Positions 12,252-46,913 of a DNA stretch of 49,265 nucleotides are shown here, piece after piece (position 1 is the first letter of the stretch; every line of letters begins with the position of its first letter). A program made the position numbers and the translations under genes. The notes beneath the pieces are model-generated. The model saw nothing but the letters and a program-made list of their open reading frames with translations. It made no database searches and was not told the DNA's origin. Source of the DNA: Chiloscyllium plagiosum (lineage: Eukaryota); the NCBI RefSeq assembly GCF_004010195.1, contig NC_057756.1, positions 5,952,811 to 6,002,075 on the forward strand, read 5' to 3'.

Positions 12252-13589
12252 ACTATCATTATCCATTTCAAATATACCGGGTCAATACTTTGCAGCGTAT
12301 TTTTGTTAAGTTTTTTCAGGTTAACTGTCTATCAGCATCTCAATGTGACAGTGCAGGGAAACCAAAGTGAAATTTGTCACAAATGAATCAGGGGTATGAA
12401 AAGACCGAACAGTATTACACTACAAATTGTCATGTACTTACAATATTGTGTCATATCTGAAGATGTCATTTGAAAATCTTGTCGCCACAAAGTTATGTCG
12501 CACATCCATTAGTGTAAGATTCATCACTTAATTTTCAAAACTGCCGGGAAACCAGCTGCTTTATAATATTTCAACAGATTATTACTGTAGAAGCAAAAAA
12601 TAGAATTCAAGTTCCTGTATCTCTCTGTCGCTGTCTTTTTTAAGCATTAGATCAGGTCAATCTGTTCACTCATGCATTGCTGTTCCTGAAAATGAATACA
12701 TTTTGCTTCATGCATATTGCCAAACATATTGCCCGAAAGGGCTTAATACTGGAATCGGGGCAATTAGTTCCATGATAAGTCCTACAGAAATGTGACAAAA
12801 TCAGTTCAGATTCATTTTTCCCTGACAACATTATCCTTGATAGTGTTGGTCATCAAGACTACCTCTTACCTTCAATCTATGCCCCAACCCAGTCACTGAT
12901 CCCTCCATCCAGGGGGAGAGGGTACTTCCTGTCTACCCGACCAATCCCCCTCATGATTTTATGTACTCCCTCTCTCAATCTCCTCTGCTCTAAGGATAAC
13001 AATCCCAGACTGTCCAATCTCTCTCCATCATTGAAATTCTCCAGCCCCAAGGCAACATCCTGGTAAATCTCCCTCTGCACCTTCTTCCAGTGCTATCACA
13101 TCCCTCCGATAATGTACATTCCAGACCAGCACACAATACACTGCTCATGGCATTCTTAACATCATTTCATAGAATCACAGAACCCCTACAGTGTGGAAAC
13201 AGGCCATTCAGCCCAACAAGCCCACACCTACCCTCCAAAAAGTATCCCACCCAGGCCCATTCCCTCTGCCCTATAACTCTACATTTATCTCGACTAATAG
13301 ACCTAACCTACACATCACTGAACACCATGGAGAATTTAACATGGCCAATTCACTTAACCTGCACATAGAACATAGAACATTACAGCACAGTACAGACCCT
13401 TCAGCCCTCAATGTTGCGCCACCCTGTGGAACCAATCTGAAGCACATCTATCCTACACTATTCCATTTTCATCTATATGTCTATCCAATGATCATTTAAA
13501 TGCCATTAAAGTTGGTGGGTCTACTACTGGTGCAGGCAGTGAATTCCACATCCTATTACTACCTCTGACATCTGTCCTATATCTATCAC

Positions 13590-13964
13590 AGGATAGCCAG
13601 AAGGGACCTGAAGAAAGGGATTAGGAGAGCCAAGAGAGGGCATGAAAAATCTTTGGCGGATAGGATCAAGGATAACCCAAAGGCATTTTATACGTATGTG
13701 AGAAACATGAGAATGACAAGAACGAGGGTAGGTCCAATCAAGGACAGTAGTGGGAGACTGTGTATTGAGTCAGAAGAGATAAGAGAGGTCTTGAATGAGT
13801 ACTTTTCTTCAGTATTTACGAATGAGAGGAACCGTATTGTTGACGAGGAGAGTGTGAAACGGACTGGTAAGCTAGAGGAGATACTTGTTAGGAAGGAAGA
13901 TGTGTTGGACATTTTGAACAACTTGAGGATAGACAAGTCCCCCGGGCCTGACGGGACATATCCT
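13590..13964 (+). mobile_element. CR1 ORF2 fragment (tether / pre-RT region)
   Basis: IKDNPKAFYTYV...LNEYFSSVFT...DKSPGPDG. Confidence 0.9.
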
Positions 13965-14382: not shown

Positions 14383-16502
14383 TGATCGAGTCCCTGTGAT
14401 CGAGTGTGTGTGACTGACTGCCTGTGACCCGAGTGCCTGTGACTGAGTGCCTGTGGCAAAGTGCCTGTGACCGAGTGCCTGTGTCCCGAATGCCTGTGAT
14501 CGAGAGCCTGTGACGGAGTGCCTGTGACGGAGTGCCTGTGACTGAGTGCCTGTGAGGGAGTGCCTGTGATCGAGTGCCTGTGACCGAGTACCTGTGATCG
14601 GGTGCCTGTGACTGCGTGCCTGAGATTGAGTGCCTGTGATCGAGTCCCTGTGATCGAGTGTATGTGACTGACTGCCTGTGATCGTTTGCCTGTGATTGAG
14701 TGCCTGTGACCCGAGTGCCTGTGATTGAGTGCCTGTGACCGAGTGCCTGTGACCGAGTGCCTGTGATTGAGTGCCTGTGACCGAGTGCGTGACTGACTGC
14801 CTGTGATTGAGTGCCTGTGACCGAGTACCTGTGATTGGGTGCCTGTGACTGTGTGCCTGTGACTGAGTCCCCGCGATTGGGTGCCTGTGACCGAGTGCCT
14901 GTGATCGAGTGCCTGTGATCGAGTGTGTGTGGCTGACTGCCAGTGATTGAGTGCCTGTGATCATGTGCCTGTGATTGAGTGTCTGTGTCTGGGTGCCTGT
15001 AATCTAGTGCCTGTGAAGTGTGCCTGTGTCCGATTGCCTGTGATTGAGTGCCTGTGACCGAGTGCCTGAGATTAACTGCCTGTGTCTGGCTGTTTGTGAC
15101 CAAGTGCCTGTGAATGAATGCCTGTGATGGAGTGACAGTGTCGGAGTGCCTGTGACCGAGTGGCTGTGACCGAGTGCCTGTGAATGAGTGCCTGTGACCG
15201 AGTGCCTGTGACCGCGTCCCTGTGATCGAGTGCCTGTGACTGAGTGCCTGTGACCCGAGAGCCTGTGACTGAGTGCCTGTGGCCGAGAGCCTGTGACCGA
15301 GTGCCTGTGACCGAGTGCCTGTGTTTGAGTGCCTGTCACCCAGTGCCTGTGATTGAGTGCCTGTGACTGAGTGCCTGTGATCGAGTGCGTGTGACTGACT
15401 GCCTGTAATCGAGTGCCTGTGATTGAGTGCCTGTGGACGAGTGGCTGTGACCGAGTGCCTGTGACTGAGTGTCTGTGATGGAGTGCCTGTGATGGAGTGC
15501 CTGTGACTGAGCGCCTGTGAGGGAGTGCCAGTGATTGAGTGCCTGTGACCGAGTACCTGTGATCGGGTGCCTGTGACTGCGTGCCAGAGATTGAGTGCCT
15601 GTGATCGAGTGTGTGTGACTGACTGCCTGTGATCGTGTGCCTGTGATTGAGTGCTTGTGACCCGAGTGCCTGTGATTGAGTGCCTGTGACTGAGTGCCTG
15701 TGGCTGAGTGCCTGTGACCGAGTGCCTGTGGCTGAGCACCTGTGACCGATTGCCTGTGACTGAGTGCCTGTGATTGAGTGCCTGTGACTGAGTGCCTGTG
15801 ATCGAGTGCGTGACTGACTGCCTGTGAACGAGTACCTGTGATTGAGTGCCTGTGAACGAGTGCCTGTGATTGAGTGCCTGTGACCGAGTTCCTGTGACGG
15901 GGTGCCTGTGACGGAGTGCCTGTGTTTAAGTGCCTGTGACGGAATGCCTGTGATTGAGTGCCTGTGACCGAGTACCTGTGATCGGGTGCCTGTGACTGCG
16001 TGCCTGAGATTGAGTGCCTGTGATCAAGTACCTGTGATCGAGTGTGTGTGTCTGACTGCCTGTGATCGTGTGCCTGTGATTGAGTCCCTGTGATCGAGTG
16101 CCTGTGATTGAGTGCCTACAACCGAGTGTGTGTGACTGAGTGCCTGTGATTGAGTGCCTGTAATCGAGTGCCTTTGACTGAGTGCCTGTGACCGAGCGCT
16201 TGGGATGGAGTGCCTGTGGTCGAGTGCCTGTGACCCGAGTGCCTGTGATTGAGTGCCTGTGACTGAATGCCTGTGATCGGGTGCGTGTGACTGACTGCCT
16301 GTGGTCGAGTGCCTGTGATTGTGTGCCTGTGACCGAGTGCCTGTGATTGTGTGCCTGTGACGGAGTGCCTGTGACGGAGTGCCTGAGATTGTGTTTATGT
16401 GACCGAGTACCTGTGATTGGGTGCCTGTGAGTGAGTGTCTGTGATCAAGTGCCTAGCATCGAGTGCGTGTGACTGACTGCCTGTGATCGAGTGCCTGTGA
16501 TG
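14383..16502. repeat. About 2.1-kb minisatellite, 14-bp unit GAGTGCCTGTGAYY, with higher-order variants
   Basis: Direct reading, roughly 150 units; left end hidden in the gap. Confidence 0.97.
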
Positions 16503-22243: not shown

Positions 22244-22280
22244 ATGGCATTGTGGTCATTATTGTTTTTCATAAATTCAA
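22244..22280 (+). CDS. Leader exon 1, coding part (MALWSLLFFINS + 1 nt); exon starts at 22158 with 5'UTR
   Basis: Acceptor ttttttttgtttaattccacag ends at 22157; strong Kozak context (AAAATGG); hydrophobic peptide; donor a|gtacgt at 22281, phase 1. Confidence 0.72.
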
Positions 22281-24108: not shown

Positions 24109-24144
24109 TTCATTTGATGGTTCTGAAGTGCCAAGCTTCAACAG
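24109..24144 (+). CDS. 36-bp leader mini-exon 2 (IHLMVLKCQAST)
   Basis: Acceptor gttttcattgtcttacag|, donor cag|gtaaga, phase 1-1; completes a signal peptide with a C-Q-A small-residue cleavage motif. Confidence 0.78.
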
Positions 24145-25535: not shown

Positions 25536-26054
25536 TCAATGTGATGAGGATTTCTGCCTCTCCCACCCTTACAGGTAATGAGTTCCGGATTCCCCACCAC
25601 CCTCTGGTTGGAGAAGGCTTTCCTCACATCCCCTCTAATCCCCCGATCCCTTACCTTTAATCTATTCCACTTCTCCCCAGCCTTTAACATTGTTGCCTCT
25701 ATCAAGGGAGCAAGGTTTCTTCCTGACCACCCTATCATTACCCCCTCAACATTTTATACACCTTAACGAGGCAGCGTCTGCTATTTGTTCAGGTAATGTT
25801 CATTTTCAGTGAATTTTGTTAGGCTTCCCACCTGAGGTGACGTGACATATCGTTGCGAAGAATAATGGTGAGTTAGACATTTTTGCCATCATGGGTCTTA
25901 AGGACCAAAAAGGAATTTTACTGACATCTCATCAGAGACTGAACCAGTCCGTTTCATAACTCTCTTATACTTGTTTCTCTGATACACCCTAAGTGCTTGA
26001 CCAACTCCATTCCAATTCCAGCTTTCCTTTTGTCTCTGGTTAAACCCAATTCTC

Positions 26055-28446: not shown

Positions 28447-29900
28447 AGAGTCATAGAGTCACAGAGATGTACAGTATGGAAACAGACTCTTTGGTCCAAC
28501 CTGTCCATGCCGACCAGGTAGCCCAACCCAATCTAGTCCCACCTGCCAGCACCTGGCCCATATCCCTCCAAACCCTTCCTATTCATATACCCATCCAAAT
28601 GACTCTTAAATGTTGTAATTGTACCAGTCTCCACCACTTCCTCTGGCAGCTCATTCCATACACACACCACCCTCTGTGTGAAAATGTTGCCCCATAGGTC
28701 TCTTTTATATCTTTCCCTCTCTCCCTAAACCTATGCCCTCTAGTTCTGNNNNNNNNNNNNNNNNNNNNNNNNNNNNNNNNNNNNNNNNNNNNNNNNNNNN
28801 NNNNNNNNNNNNNNNNNNNNNNNNNNNNNNNNNNNNNNNNNNNNNNNNNNNNNNNNNNNNNNNNNNNNNNNNNNNNNNNNNNNNNNNNNNNNNNNNNNNN
28901 NNNNNNNNNNNNNNNNNNNNNNNNNNNNNNNNNNNNNNNNNNNNNNNNNNNNNNNNNNNNNNNNNNNNNNNNNNNNNNNNNNNNNNNNNNNNNNNNNNNN
29001 NNNNNNNNNNNNNNNNNNNNNNNNNNNNNNNNNNNNNNNNNNNNNNNNNNNNNNNNNNNNNNNNNNNNNNNNNNNNNNNNNNNNNNNNNNNNNNNNNNNN
29101 NNNNNNNNNNNNNNNNNNNNNNNNNNNNNNNNNNNNNNNNNNNNNNNNNNNNNNNNNNNNNNNNNNNNNNNNNNNNNNNNNNNNNNCACTGGTCACAGGC
29201 CTCCAGTCTGAAAAACAACCCTCTACCACCACCCTCTGTCTTCTCCTTTGAGCCAGTTCTGTATCCAAATGGCTAGTTCTCCCTGTATTCCATGAGATCT
29301 AACCTTGATAATCAGTCTCCCATGGGGAACCTTGTCGAATGCCTTACTGAAGTCCATATAGATCACATCTACTGCTCTGCCCTCATCAATCCTCTTTGTT
29401 ACTTCTTCAAATAATTCAATCAAGTTTGTGAGACATGATTTCCCACACACAAAGCCATGTTGACTATCCCGAATCAGTCCTTGCCTTTTACATGTACATG
29501 TACAGTCCTTGCCAAATACATGTACATCCTGTTCCTCAGGATTCCCTCCAACAACTTGCCCACCACTGAGGTCAGGCTCACTGGTCTAAAGTACCCTGGC
29601 TTGTCCTTACCATCCTTCTTAAACAGTGATACCATGTTAGCCAACCTCCAGTCTTCCGGCACCTCACCTGTGACTATAAATGATACAAATATCTCAGCAA
29701 GCGGCCCAGCAATCACTTCTCTAGCTTCCCACAGAGTTCTCGGGTACACCTGATCAGGTCCTGGGGATTTATTCATCTTTATGCGTTTCAAGACATCCAT
29801 CACTTCCTTCTCTGTAATATGGACAGTCTGCAAGGTGTCACCATTTCGCTACTTTCTATATCTTCCATATCCTTTTGTACAGTAAATACTGATGCGATTA
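28447..29900 (-). mobile_element. Young CR1, RT-containing, spanning gap 28749-29186
   Basis: KSPGPDQVYPR...RPVSLTSVVGKLLE...DVIYMDFSKAFDKVPH. Confidence 0.92.
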
Positions 29901-30163: not shown

Positions 30164-30478
30164 AAACTGTCCGAATGCGTTTGGCTGATGGTGGAGGACC
30201 GTGCTCCGGCAGAGTGGAACTCCTTATCAACGGCACTTGGGGCGCAGTTTGTGACGATGACTGGGACCTGCTCGATGCAAACGTTGCCTGCAAGCAGATG
30301 GCATGTGGGGCAGCCAGACTGGCCCCTCATGGGGCCCATTTCGGAGCCACTGCTGCCCCCTTTTGGCTGGATGATGTTGAGTGCAGAGGCACTGAGTCTA
30401 ACCTAATCCAGTGCCCTGCAAACACTTTGGGAAAACACAACTGTGGCTCTGGCGAGGCAGCGTCTGTCATCTGCACAG
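30164..30478 (+). CDS. SRCR domain exon 1 (group B, 8 Cys)
   Basis: ccttcag|...cacag|gtaagg, 315 bp; RL.DG..PCSGRVE...WGAVCDDDWD...FWLDDVEC.G.ES.L.QC...HNC...VIC. Confidence 0.95.
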
Positions 30479-32411: not shown

Positions 32412-33457
32412 AGTAACAAAGAGGATTGCTGAGGGCAGAGCGGTGGATGTGATCTATATGGACTTCAGTAAGGTGTTCGACAAGGTTCCCCATGGGAGAT
32501 AGATTAGCAAAGTTAGATCTCATTGTTTACAGGGAGAACTAGCCATTTGGATACAGAACTGGCTCAAAGGTAGAAGACATAGGGTGGTGGTGGAGGGTTG
32601 TTTTTCAGACTGGAGGCCTGTGACCAATGGAGTGCCACAAAGATTGGTGCTGGGTCCACTACTTTTTGTCATTTACATAAATGATTTGGATGCAAACATA
32701 AGAGGTACAGTTAGTAAGTTTGCAGATGACNNNNNNNNNNNNNNNNNNNNNNNNNNNNNNNNNNNNNNNNNNNNNNNNNNNNNNNNNNNNNNNNNNNNNN
32801 NNNNNNNNNNNNNNNNNNNNNNNNNNNNNNNNNNNNNNNNNNNNNNNNNNNNNNNNNNNNNNNNNNNNNNNNNNNNNNNNNNNNNNNNNNNNNNNNNNNN
32901 NNNNNNNNNNNNNNNNNNNNNNNNNNNNNNNNNNNNNNNNNNNNNNNNNNNNNNNNNNNNNNNNNNNNNNNNNNNNNNNNNNNNNNNNNNNNNNNNNNNN
33001 NNNNNNNNNNNNNNNNNNNNNNNNNNNNNNNNNNNNNNNNNNNNNNNNNNNNNNNNNNNNNNNNNNNNNNNNNNNNNNNNNNNNNNNNNNNNNNNNNNNN
33101 NNNNNNNNNNNNNNNNNNNNNNNNNNTAGACAAAGTCTTTTCCCTGGGGTTGGGGAGTCCAGAACTAGAGGGCATAGGTTTAGGGTGAGAGGGGAAAGAT
33201 ATAAAAGAGACCTAAAGGGCAACTTTTTCACGCAGAGGGTGGTACGTGTATGGAATGAGCTGCCAGAAGATGTGGTGGAGGCTGGTACAATTGCAACATT
33301 TAAGAGGCATTTGGATGGGTATATGAGTAGGAAGGATTTGGAGGAATATGGGCCAGTTGCTGGCAGGTGGAACTAGATTGGGTTGGGATATCTGGTCGGC
33401 ATGGACGTTTTGGACTGAAGGGTCTGTTTCCATGCTGTACATCTCTATGACTCTATG
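32412..33457 (+). mobile_element. Young CR1 spanning gap 32731-33126
   Basis: DVIYMDFSKVFDKVPH...GVPQ..VLGPLLF...SKFADD; 3' tail ctctatgactctatga. Confidence 0.92.
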
Positions 33458-34956: not shown

Positions 34957-35267
34957 AACAATTCCAGGTCAGAATTGTGGATGGAGACAATAAGTGTTCG
35001 GGGAGAGTGGAAGTCTTTTACAAAGCAACATGGGGCACAGTCTGCGATGATGGGATCTAAGTGATGCTCAGGTTGTCTGCACCGAGTTGAGTTGTGGGTT
35101 CGCCCACGAGGCGCCCAGAAGTGCCAAATTTGGGGAAGGCCTATCATCGATTTGGCTGGATTCTGTCCAATGCAATGGGTCTGAATCAAACCTCTGGCAG
35201 TGCCAGTCAAGCGCCCTGGGTCAGCATGACTGCCAACACAGCGAGGATGCATCTGTAATCTGCTCCA
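34957..35267 (+). pseudogene. SRCR domain exon 2, frameshifted
   Basis: ccacag|...tcca|gtaagt, 311 bp versus 315 bp for the other SRCR exons. Reads [32 protein letters not shown] then G-I-TAA (35058-35060); the rest of the domain ([10 protein letters not shown]...[10 protein letters not shown]) is in another frame. Confidence 0.9.
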
Positions 35268-38100: not shown

Positions 38101-38785
38101 CTCGTCAATGATAGGGCCAATTAAGTATGTAAAAGCTTTGTGTAGAATTTAGAACATCAAGTAGTGATCTGATCAAAGATATTAACAGGAAGACATTGGG
38201 TCGAGAAAGACAAGCTATTTCCATTAGTTGGGTGTTCGATAACTAGACAGGGTACAGTCTGAGAATGAGGGCCAGACAATCTCGGAGAGATGTTCGGAAA
38301 CATTTCCACGCACAGAGGGTGCAGGAGGTTTTCAGCTGCCTTCCACAAATGGCAGTGGATGTGGATTCAATGTTAGTTTTTGATCTGTGAAGCAAAGGCG
38401 TTAAGGAGTTAGGGGGCCAAAGGTAGGTCACAAACAGCCAGGATCTCACTGCACAGACATGAGGGGCTGAATGGCCTACTTCCATCTTCCCGTGCCGACA
38501 ATGTGTGGAGCAGGAGACAGAGCGATAAAGTGCTCCACTGTGGGTGACTGCGGTGCTCCATTTAAACAGTGTGTTATATTCACCCCAGCAAAATTGAGCC
38601 TGTGTGTTCCTCAATTCATTTAGAAGCAGCTGTGGTCGAGTTGATATGATACAGCGAAAGTCAAAGAACGGCAGATGGCTCAAAATAGAGTTGGATATTC
38701 TGGTTTCACATGCAGTAACCTTGACTGTCTGTGTCAGTTCTGAGTGGGAGATAATGCCAGTATATTGTTTTACATTTATCTGCAG

Positions 38786-39091
38786 ACCACCCACCAAAGC
38801 CCATTTTGTCGCTTGACATGAAACGTGAAATCTTCACACCAATGGACACACTCCAATTAAAATGTACTACTCGGAGTTATTATGTGGGGAGTACCTTTTA
38901 TTTGAAGAAAACAGGAGACAGTTCCTTTGGTGCCACTCAAACCGCTCCCGAAGGGGCGTATAGCATGATCTTCTTCATCCACGATATGGATCTGAGCCAC
39001 AGTGGGAACTACACCTGTCACTATCAAACAAACAGATCAGGATCGCCTCGAAACTCAAGCAGCAGTGACTCTGTGAAGGTGGTCGTCACAG
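38786..39091 (+). CDS. C2-type immunoglobulin domain exon (LILR/KIR/CHIR/IGSF1-like signature)
   Basis: tttatctgcag|...cacag|gtaagt, 306 bp, phase 1-1. HPPKPILSL...LKC...FYLKKTG...FFI...SGNYTCHY...SDSVKVVVT, with 50 aa between the cysteines and no C-strand Trp. Confidence 0.9.
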
Positions 39092-39624
39092 GTAAGTAAG
39101 GGAGAGTGACCAACAGAAACACACTGTCCACTGTCACAATCCATCAGTCCCATCAAACCATCCCCAGCGTCCTGTTCTGTGCCACATTGCAATCAGGAAA
39201 CAAGCTTTGTCGCTTTGTGACATGATAAACAAAACCAGAAATTGCTGGAAAAACTCAGTTGGTCTGGCAGCATCTGTGTGGAGAGAGCAGAGTTAATATT
39301 CGAGCCCAGTGACCACACTTGCGAATTTTGGTTTTATTTATTGTTGTCAAATATACCGAGATACAGTGAAAAGTGTTGTTTCCCATGCTCTACAGGCAGA
39401 TTGTACTGTACAGAGTCAGGATACAGAGAAGGTGCAAGGAGTGTCATTAACATTTGGAAGGTCCATTCATAAGTCTGATAACAACGGGGAAGAAGCTGAT
39501 CTTGAATCTGTTCATACTTGTGTACGTCTGCCTGATGGAAGAGGGTGGAGTAGAGTACAACTGGTATGGGAGGGGTCTTTGATTATATTGGTTGATTCCC
39601 CAAGTCAGTGGGAAGTATAGTTGT

Positions 39625-43308: not shown

Positions 43309-43623
43309 ACTTGATCCAAATACGGTTGGTGAATGGGACGGATGCGTGTTCCGGGAGAGTTGAACTCAATTACAAGGACATTTGGGGAGCAGTTTGCGAT
43401 GATGCGTGGGACCTTCGGGACGCGGACGTTGCTTGTAAACAAATGGGCTGTGGACCAGCCAGATCAGCCCCAGGGAGCGCTCAGTTTGGCGAGGCCACTG
43501 GAACCTTCTGGTTGGATGATGTTGAGTGTAAGGGGCATGAGTCACACTTGCTCCAGTGTCCGTCGAACCCAGTTGGAAAACACAACTGCAACGCAGGAGA
43601 GGCAGCGGCTGTTACTTGCTCAG
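43309..43623 (+). CDS. SRCR domain exon 3 (group B, 8 Cys)
   Basis: taatatag|...ctcag|gtgtgt, 315 bp; LIQIRLVNGTDACSGRVE...WGAVCDDAWD...FWLDDVEC...HNCNAGEAAAVTCS. Confidence 0.93.
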
Positions 43624-43740: not shown

Positions 43741-44860
43741 AGAGTCATAGAGTCATATAGCACAGAATCAGGCCCTTCGGCCCAACACTGCAATGCCCAC
43801 CCAGATTCTTAAACTGAACTAGTCCAATTTGCTTGTGTTTGGCCCATATCCCTCTAAACCTTTCCTATCCATGTACCCATCTAGATGCCTGTTAAATGTT
43901 GTGATTGTACCCACCTCTATCACTTCCCTCTGGCAGCTCATTCCATACACGCACCCCGCTCTGTGTGAGAACATTGCTGGTCAGGTCCTCTTGTCTTATA
44001 CTTGTACCCTCTAGTTTTGGAATCCCCTACCCTGAGGAAAAGACCTTGCCTCCTCACCTTATCTATCCCCCTTGTGATTTCATAAATCTCTGGAAGGTCA
44101 TCCCTCAGTCTCCGACGCTCCAGGGATAAAGATCCCAACCCATCCAGCCCCTCCTTATAACTCAAACCTTCCAGTCCCGGCAACATCCTCATCAAGTTTT
44201 TCTGCACCCTTTCCTGTTTCACAACATCCTCCCTATAAGAGTGACCAGAATTATATGTGTTCTGAAAATGACCTCACCAATGTCTTGTGCAGCCATAACA
44301 TGCCATCCCAACTCTAACACACATTGCTCAGACCGATGAAGGTGAGTGTGCCAAATGCCTTCTTAATGACCCTGTCCACCCATGACACCAACAATGTACC
44401 TGCACCCTCTGTTCAATAACACTCCTCATGGTCCTACCATTAACTGTGTAAGTCCTGCCTTGATTTATCTTACCAAAATGCAACACCTCACGTTGATCAA
44501 AATTAAACTCCATCTCGCACCCCGAACCCCATTGGCCCAGCTGATCAAGATCTGATTGTACTCTTAGACAACCGTCTTCTCTGTCCACCACCCCACCAAT
44601 GTTGGTGTCATCTGCAAACTTACTGACCATGCCTCCTAAATTCTCATCCAAATTGTTGAGATAAATGACAAACCACAGTGGACCCAGCACTGATCCTTGT
44701 GGGACACCATTGGTCACAGGCCTCTAGTCTGAATAACAACCCTCTACCACCATCTTCTGCCTCCTCCTATCAAACCAATTTTGTAACCAATTACTTTCCC
44801 TCCCTGGATCCCATGTAATCTAGCCTTACTAACCAGTCAACCATGTGGGATCTTGTCGAT
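43741..44860 (-). mobile_element. CR1 with RT remnant
   Basis: GVPQGSVLGPLWF...VSKFADDT. Confidence 0.9.
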
Positions 44861-46598: not shown

Positions 46599-46913
46599 AT
46601 CCGATTGCACTGCGATTCATGAATGGGACGGACAAGTGTTCTGGGAGAGTTGAGCTCTATTATAACGACAGCTGGACAGCCATCTGTGATGATGGTTGGG
46701 ACATAGATGATGCCAATGTCGTTTGCCGTCAACTGGGCTGTGGGCAAGCCACGTCGGCTCCAGGGGGTGCCCACTTTGGCATGGTACCTGCAGAGTTCTG
46801 GTCATATACAGTCAAATGTAAAGGGACTGAGTCTAACCTCGTCAAGTGTCAAACAAGGTCAATGGAAGGAGACCACTGCAGATCAGGATCTGCAGCTTTT
46901 GTTATTTGCTCAG
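46599..46913 (+). CDS. SRCR domain exon 4 (group B, 8 Cys, divergent)
   Basis: cttccctcctttag|...ctcag|gtaaag, 315 bp; PIALRFMNGTDKCSGRVELYYNDSWTAICDDGWD...HCRSGSAAFVICS. Confidence 0.93.

Follow-up and report, generated by a model that had tools for sequence, protein, structure and literature searches.

The time of origin of the leukocyte receptor complex (LRC) family (KIR, LILR, GPVI, FCAR) is unsettled. LILRs and KIRs bind MHC I through two tandem Ig domains, MHC receptors are fast-evolving, and binding of collagen or Ig by a single domain is known from LAIR1 and CHIR-AB1. The F-x-L that stands in the C strand of LRC domains in place of Trp is regarded as their motif, and the second signal-peptide exon (S2) of KIR and LILR is 36 nt long, a length for which our literature search returned no paper stating it. 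Genes flanking the LRC include TTYH1, LENG8/9, RPS9, CNOT3 and PRPF31; VANGL2, ARHGEF11 and SLAM genes mark the FcR region. Among group-B SRCR proteins, DMBT1, CD163 and WC1 capture ligands by their SRCR domains; DMBT1 possesses CUB and ZP domains and is secreted, and receptors of this group depend on secretion or on a long tyrosine-containing tail. Mouse FCRLS is soluble, is encoded in the FcR locus and its Ig domains are of FCRL type.

Parts of a 2014 survey report neither C2-type LRC homologues nor FcRγ in sharks, and describe mouse FCRLS as a mosaic of Ig and group-B SRCR domains, which is a precedent for SRCR-Ig exon shuffling (PMC4016189). Passages of a 2019 study treat the fish counterparts of the LRC as uncertain; they characterize the FcRγ-coupling transmembrane segment (TM) by the NxxR motif with an 'invariable' Asn, a DYT-like start and an acidic C-end, call it the most conserved LRC element, and also list NxxR TMs in Xenopus FCRL and SLAM receptors, so that the motif is not LRC-exclusive (PMC6557307). 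An LRC-precursor region is placed on a proto-gnathostome microchromosome (PMC8302630). S2 of human FCAR encodes 12 aa, residues 12-23, according to Table 1 of PMC5351921. A 30/21-bp rule, with an S2 of 21 bp, holds according to PMC2413239 for FCRL1-6, FcγRI and some Xenopus XFLs; the same paper states that XFLs use an NxxR TM together with FcRγ. Group-B SRCRs are understood here as in the corresponding section of PMC2906472.

The window, i.e. the whole stretch of Chiloscyllium plagiosum DNA analysed (49,265 nucleotides), was compared by tblastn with the closest database proteins. An Ig exon was found in the middle of the ectodomain of a mosaic gene, preceded by two signal-peptide exons and three SRCR exons and followed by two more SRCR exons (Table 1). 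The SRCR domains belong to group B, having eight Cys and one phase-1/1 exon per domain. The preliminary description had recognized the Ig exon correctly and had overlooked both its mosaic context and the damage in this copy. A stand-alone LILR/KIR-like gene is ruled out, since the Ig exon is embedded among SRCR exons. Search of the window for further Ig or SRCR exons gave none, and queries with the C-termini of orthologues detected no TM exon in it; the TM exon, or a further repeat unit, is expected to lie beyond 49265. No other gene was found in the window, and no other host gene was recognized in 1-22200. The region 14383-16501, beside an N gap, is a 14-bp tandem array of about 151 copies with long spurious minus-strand ORFs, and many LINE-like reverse-transcriptase fragments (identified by eye) and SINE-like copies are scattered through the window, e.g. 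at 13569-13964, 29223-29848, 32503-32730 and 44328-44723.

Table 1. Exons of the mosaic gene in window coordinates; P0002 is the predicted protein of Chiloscyllium punctatum.
Feature	Position	Strand	Properties and evidence
Signal-peptide exon S1, coding part from ATG to donor, 37 nt	22244..22280	+	gt donor; 11/12 aa identical to N-terminus of P0002
Signal-peptide mini-exon S2, 36 nt, phase 1/1	24109..24144	+	ag/gt borders; matches P0002 residues 13-24
SRCR1 exon remnant, ~last 30 nt	25762..25792 (start approximate)	+	intact donor, no acceptor; encodes end of P0002 SRCR1
Intact SRCR2 exon of group B with 8 Cys; phase 1/1, 315 nt	30164..30478	+	Pfam SRCR E 6.5e-30; 101/104 aa identical to P0002
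SRCR3 exon, 311 nt vs 315	34957..35267	+	4-nt loss near 35050; halves 30/30 and 69/71 identical to P0002
Intact Ig exon (LRC-type C2); phase 1/1, 306 nt	38786..39091	+	cag acceptor, gtaagt donor
SRCR4 exon, group B, 315 nt, intact	43309..43623	+	Pfam SRCR E 4.7e-31; 96/104 identical to P0002
Intact SRCR5 exon of group B, 315 nt; no later exon detected in window	46599..46913	+	Pfam SRCR E 1.5e-28; 100/104 identical to P0002

Codons 38788-39090 encode a stop-free Ig domain of 101 aa; the length of 102 aa given previously had counted in the split codon. All motifs listed earlier for this exon are present in the translated domain: PPKPILS at position 2, FYLKKTG at 37, FFI at 62, SGNYTCHY at 72 and the S..SD.V.V.VT end at 90, together with three sequons (NYT 74, NRS 82, NSS 89), all of them on the F-G half. 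Trp occurs nowhere in the domain and Cys only at positions 26 and 77. Pfam hits (Ig_3, E 8.8e-6; Ig_2, 4.8e-5; also ig) were all under the gathering cut-offs. AlphaFold2, supplied with a 31-row alignment of shark, fish and caecilian domains, produced a confident Ig sandwich (pLDDT 95), which was used instead of the single-sequence model (pLDDT 67); the Pfam HIDE1 model matches 22 of the 31 rows of this Ig alignment. A chance ORF is ruled out, as the domain exists in four named shark proteins at 48-95% identity (four matches from 67 candidates) and the Ig pattern, composed after the domain was seen, has one match in the window and none in 100 shuffles. At least half of the words of 38700-39200 are present in 13 of the 24 listed sequencing runs; twelve of these 13, coming from four studies, are not the possible source.

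Next, we examined the affinity of the domain. Used alone against PDB sequences, it gave 51 matches, with no FcγR or FCRL among them. Fifteen reached E<=0.001, namely 13 named LRC receptors (LILRA6, PirB, LILRB1-3, FCAR, GPVI), an antibody with a LILRB1 insert and a generically named Ig protein; these scores are summed over domains, single domains reaching a weak 12-14 bits. A profile of 31 non-amniote domains, with 424 PDB matches, placed PirB and five LILRs first and FCRL5 seventh. When the shark domain was scored by family profiles, that of amniote LRC (31 domains) yielded 48.1 bits, that of an unclassified turtle family (8 domains) 41.7, that of fish FCRL-like proteins (15 domains) 27.8 and that of CEACAM/outgroup (9 domains) 18.7. 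For 81 shark, fish and caecilian domains, the best profile was LRC in 48 cases and the turtle family in 33, fish FCRL and CEACAM being best in none; within the domain's own clade the turtle profile was best for eight of ten domains, and hhalign gave 100.3 for the turtle family vs 95.5 for the LRC profile. The turtle family (P0059, P0174) consists of separate multi-Ig proteins named FCRL5 or IGSF1-like, and it rivals the LRC profile in matching shark domains. LRC proteins thus match the Ig domain better than other named IgSF families do, as the preliminary description had anticipated, with the turtle family performing similarly.

Structural comparison led to the same group. In Foldseek, the top 12 rows were all LRC proteins (TM-score 0.70-0.83), FcγRIII reaching 0.59-0.65. 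Among 48,161 chains aligned by VIA-align, LRC proteins occupied ten of the 11 top rows, at Z scores of 12.4-14.0 and an rmsd of 1.7-2.5 A for 92-97 aligned residues, with LILRB4 and KIR3DL1 at 14.0, PirB and CHIR-AB1 at 13.8, FCAR and LAIR1 at 12.8 and OSCAR at 12.4. PECAM-1 D2, at 12.5, was level with the lower LRC rows, and Fc receptors did not exceed 11.1 (FcγRI 11.1, FCRLA 10.7, FCRL5 10.6). The closest solved structures therefore have the LRC-type C2 fold, in agreement with the earlier proposal. Named neighbours in the ESM Atlas include KIR3DX1, IGSF1-like and A1BG (0.92-0.94) and FCRL2 (0.91). The C-strand Trp is absent from all shark/ray (10/10), amniote LRC (16/16) and teleost, bowfin and caecilian (6/6) rows. 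Rows that keep it are those of fish FCRL (6/7), CEACAM/outgroup (5/5) and, in one case out of four, the turtle family. The F-x-L replacing it is found in our domain and is not LRC-exclusive, as teleost, bowfin, caecilian and most turtle rows show.

Phylogeny is less decisive. One tree comprised 156 domains from 48 mostly named proteins, with at most five domains per protein; for the other, 48 rows (97 columns) were hand-picked from the first and long branches dropped. FCRL labels in this set are automatic names and mammalian FCRLs are not included. In both trees the Ig domain belongs to a chondrichthyan clade (98/89) outside LILR, KIR and CHIR, and amniote LRC domains form a separate clade (100/99). 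The node joining the two has a support of 27/0, and a tree constrained to unite shark domains and fish FCRL survives the AU test (p-AU 0.144). One domain of P0052 from Heterodontus francisci branches as sister of the amniote LRC clade, with a support of 93/81. P0052 (448 aa) and P0133 from Mustelus asterias are Ig-only shark proteins with Arg near the TM start, and they may be better candidates for shark LRC orthologues than the gene in the window.

The signal peptide and, in orthologues, the transmembrane segment provide further characters. The two-exon signal with a 12-codon S2 is shared with FCAR and differs from the 21-bp S2 of FCRLs; by our own estimate, such agreement in length would arise by chance in roughly one case out of ten. 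At the C-end of P0002 and of P0004 (Stegostoma), a TM with Arg near its start is followed by a tyrosine-free basic tail of four residues. Shark TMs keep Tyr-7, Ser-6, Glu-4, Leu-2, Arg and the C-terminal Glu, and resemble the activating LRC receptors, to which GPVI, FCAR/CD89, OSCAR, LILRA, NKp46, TARM1 and chicken CHIR belong, in the Arg, the aromatic/Thr-Ser N-cap, the Glu at -4 and the acidic C-end, whereas the Asn of NxxR is missing and Gln, Tyr or Ala stands instead. A profile was trained on ten NxxR TMs (six named, four picked by motif); among 82 TMs, P0004, P0052, P0002 and P0019 ranked 4, 5, 6 and 8, ranks 1-3 being near-copies of the training set, and they scored between 14.8 and 4.1, the median being -10.7. 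An ESM Atlas search with the orthologue TM stretch returned only an SRCR cluster at 0.78, and a homologue search with residues 600-687 of P0004 gave eight matches and no further orthologue with such a TM. The earlier claim of an LRC-type domain in a cartilaginous fish is thus backed by sequence, structure, language-model neighbours, the 36-nt S2 and the Arg TM of orthologues, but the grouping itself is not established by the tree.

Orthologues of the gene are RefSeq predictions named 'DMBT1-like' or 'M130-like': P0002, P0003 (Hemiscyllium), P0004, P0005/P0008 (Cetorhinus) and P0019 (Heptranchias) represent the same gene or close paralogues with the same domain order. Their names are automatic and none notes LRC-type features; compared with them, the copy in the window is damaged, and P0002 has a doubled unit. 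Identity of the Ig domain amounts to 95% with Chiloscyllium punctatum (95/100 aa with P0002), 90% with Hemiscyllium, 81-82% with Stegostoma (83/101 with P0004) and 48% with Cetorhinus. These values point to a carpet shark near C. punctatum as the origin of the window. Exon order is common to the window gene, P0002 and P0004, and comparison of individual exons revealed that the Ig exon diverges no faster than its SRCR neighbours (95% vs 92-97% towards P0002, 82% vs 82-83% towards P0004). The number of SRCR-Ig units varies between close relatives: a SRCR-Ig-SRCR-SRCR unit of P0002 is repeated almost exactly (residues ~235-651 and 652-1068), and P0003 repeats SRCR-Ig.

Tandem 8-Cys group-B SRCRs, one per phase-1/1 exon, are also present in DMBT1, CD163 and WC1. 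The orthologues differ from these proteins in having an Ig domain, a charged TM and a four-residue tail and in lacking CUB and ZP; Pfam detected only SRCR and Ig in four of them, besides one sub-threshold DUF hit. A DMBT1 orthologue is ruled out by the lack of CUB/ZP. With FCRL, teleost LITR and Xenopus XFL the gene shares C2 domains and the two-exon signal peptide, and it is set apart from them by the C-strand Trp of the fish FCRL rows, by the 21-bp S2 (mammalian and some XFL) and by their lower sequence and structure scores. The 36-nt S2 and the lack of Trp speak against its being an FCRL.

The combination of SRCR with this type of Ig domain is widespread: it occurs in 51 of 150 representative matches. 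Among the 30 of these 150 that were looked up by name, SRCR-Ig proteins come from the cartilaginous fish Heptranchias, Cetorhinus, Heterodontus, Scyliorhinus, Pristis and Narcine, and further from Amia, Sardina, Epinephelus, Seriola and the caecilians Geotrypetes and Rhinatrema. Five Heptranchias perlo genes (P0016, P0010, P0019/P0155, P0093, P0013) appear to be located on one contig of 1,238,652 bases, four of them with near-consecutive accessions; these Ig and SRCR-Ig genes would form a receptor cluster, XP_067833432-438, with Arg-TM and uncharged-TM forms. Two giant ray proteins annotated as uncharacterized, P0006 (Pristis, 3218 aa) and P0007 (Narcine, 2368 aa), have 18-25 such Ig domains among SRCRs. 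The caecilian P0042, P0117, P0176 and P0178, named SSC5D- or DMBT1-like, are SRCR-Ig mosaics with the Trp-less domain, so far as known the form in which such receptors persist in amphibians.

We consider it rather probable that the Ig exon encodes the only LRC-related C2 domain in a type I membrane receptor of carpet sharks. From its N-terminus this receptor would consist of a signal peptide (S1+S2), three SRCRs, the Ig domain, two SRCRs, possibly a repeat of the unit, an Arg TM and a short tail. Its mode of action is probably that of an activating LRC receptor whose ectodomain is of DMBT1/CD163 type. Placed on the leukocyte surface, it would capture most ligand (microbial surfaces or host proteins) by its group-B SRCRs, and the glycosylated internal Ig domain would serve as a module or spacer, or bind a conserved ligand. 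Since its own tail has no tyrosine, the Arg TM would recruit an ITAM adaptor, pairing with the Asp of FcRγ or CD3ζ; since the 2014 survey detected no shark FcRγ, CD3ζ is an alternative partner. Clustering would then activate the leukocyte, as for GPVI, OSCAR, FCAR and LILRA. The Ig domain itself would belong to an ancient stock of Trp-less C2 domains in gnathostomes, with the amniote LRC as one branch of that stock.

We do not class the gene as an LRC member: LRC ectodomains are Ig-only, whereas here one Ig domain lies among five SRCRs, and the LRC node is too weak. The contrary explanation, that it is a true member (a co-orthologue of LILR, KIR, GP6, FCAR and IGSF1 in an LRC-syntenic region) which gained SRCR exons by shuffling and uses its Ig domain to bind MHC I, Ig or collagen, would account for the joint occurrence of three hallmarks (Ig type, 36-nt S2, Arg TM), for the position of the Heterodontus P0052, with its similar Arg TM, next to the amniote LRC clade, and for the gathering of several such Heptranchias genes on one 1.24-Mb contig. 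We judge it unlikely, because the clade of our domain stays outside the amniote LRC clade, the tandem Ig pair is absent and the Ig exon does not outpace the SRCR exons as exons of fast-evolving MHC receptors would. The binding of MHC, Ig or collagen suggested in the preliminary description finds no support here. With its single internal position, its three sequons and its SRCR-like divergence, the Ig domain looks less like an MHC-binding unit than like a structural module or one that binds a conserved ligand; single-domain binding of collagen or Ig, by analogy with LAIR1 and CHIR-AB1, is conceivable. Far less probable still is a generic divergent C2 domain (FCRL/LITR or other IgSF kin) that converged on the Trp-less pattern within an ordinary CD163/DMBT1-like scavenger receptor. 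The unrejected FCRL constraint, the seventh place of FCRL5 in the PDB profile search, the NxxR TMs of Xenopus FCRLs and the Z of PECAM-1 are consistent with such an origin; it is disfavoured by the failure of the fish-FCRL and CEACAM profiles to come first for any of the 81 domains and by the lower FCRL score of our domain, by FcR/FCRL structures lying 2-3 Z units lower, by an S2 of 36 nt, not 21, and by the lack of CUB/ZP in orthologues.

A separate choice concerns the copy in the window. The loss of 4 nt shifts the frame of SRCR3, giving a stop at 35058-35060, and the remainder of the SRCR1 exon was not found in 1-30100; a multi-copy repeat (~25536-25763) abuts its remnant without an N gap between them. 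Elsewhere the reading frame is free of stops, splice sites are canonical and the exons match P0002 at 92-97% identity. Since the exons are symmetric, skipping of both damaged ones would preserve the frame. Probably this is a null or exon-skipping copy: it would be a recent null allele or pseudogene, or would be read only by skipping of SRCR1 and SRCR3. That the gene is intact in this animal, both lesions being assembly errors or a rare allele, appears doubtful to us and would concern copy status only. The good state of the remaining exons, the three N gaps and the 49% self-repeat cover of the window speak in its favour, but the lesions are two and independent, the SRCR3 loss is not a homopolymer slip, the SRCR1 remnant runs directly into the repeat, and the database search gave no protein whose Ig domain was identical.

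In the literature searched, whose scope left out most subscription journals, there is no description of a shark or fish receptor combining SRCRs with an LRC-type Ig domain. Ours is probably not the first record of an LRC-like domain in a cartilaginous fish, one LRC-like gene having reportedly been found in elephant shark (Immunogenetics, 2021). The new element is the mosaic of SRCRs with three LRC-like traits, the orthologues of which already exist as RefSeq predictions. A shark gene family joining these traits to DMBT1-type SRCRs offers concrete candidates for tests of synteny, adaptor coupling and ligands.

Tentatively, and with clearly less confidence than in the receptor reading itself, the SRCR-Ig mosaics of sharks, rays, bowfin, teleosts and caecilians may be proposed as the form from which the leukocyte receptor complex descended, or as its sister. 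If so, a clustered family of gnathostomes would already have combined a signal exon of 36 nt with a Trp-less C2 domain and would have included activating members with an Arg TM beside others with an uncharged TM. Amniote LILR, KIR and CHIR would have arisen by loss of SRCR exons, and the fish LRC, so far 'missing', would have been annotated as DMBT1-like and IGSF1-like genes. The gene family described here suggests an earlier coupling of activating Arg-TM signalling to scavenger domains, and hints that the set of LRC-type receptor parts dates back to the origin of jawed vertebrates.
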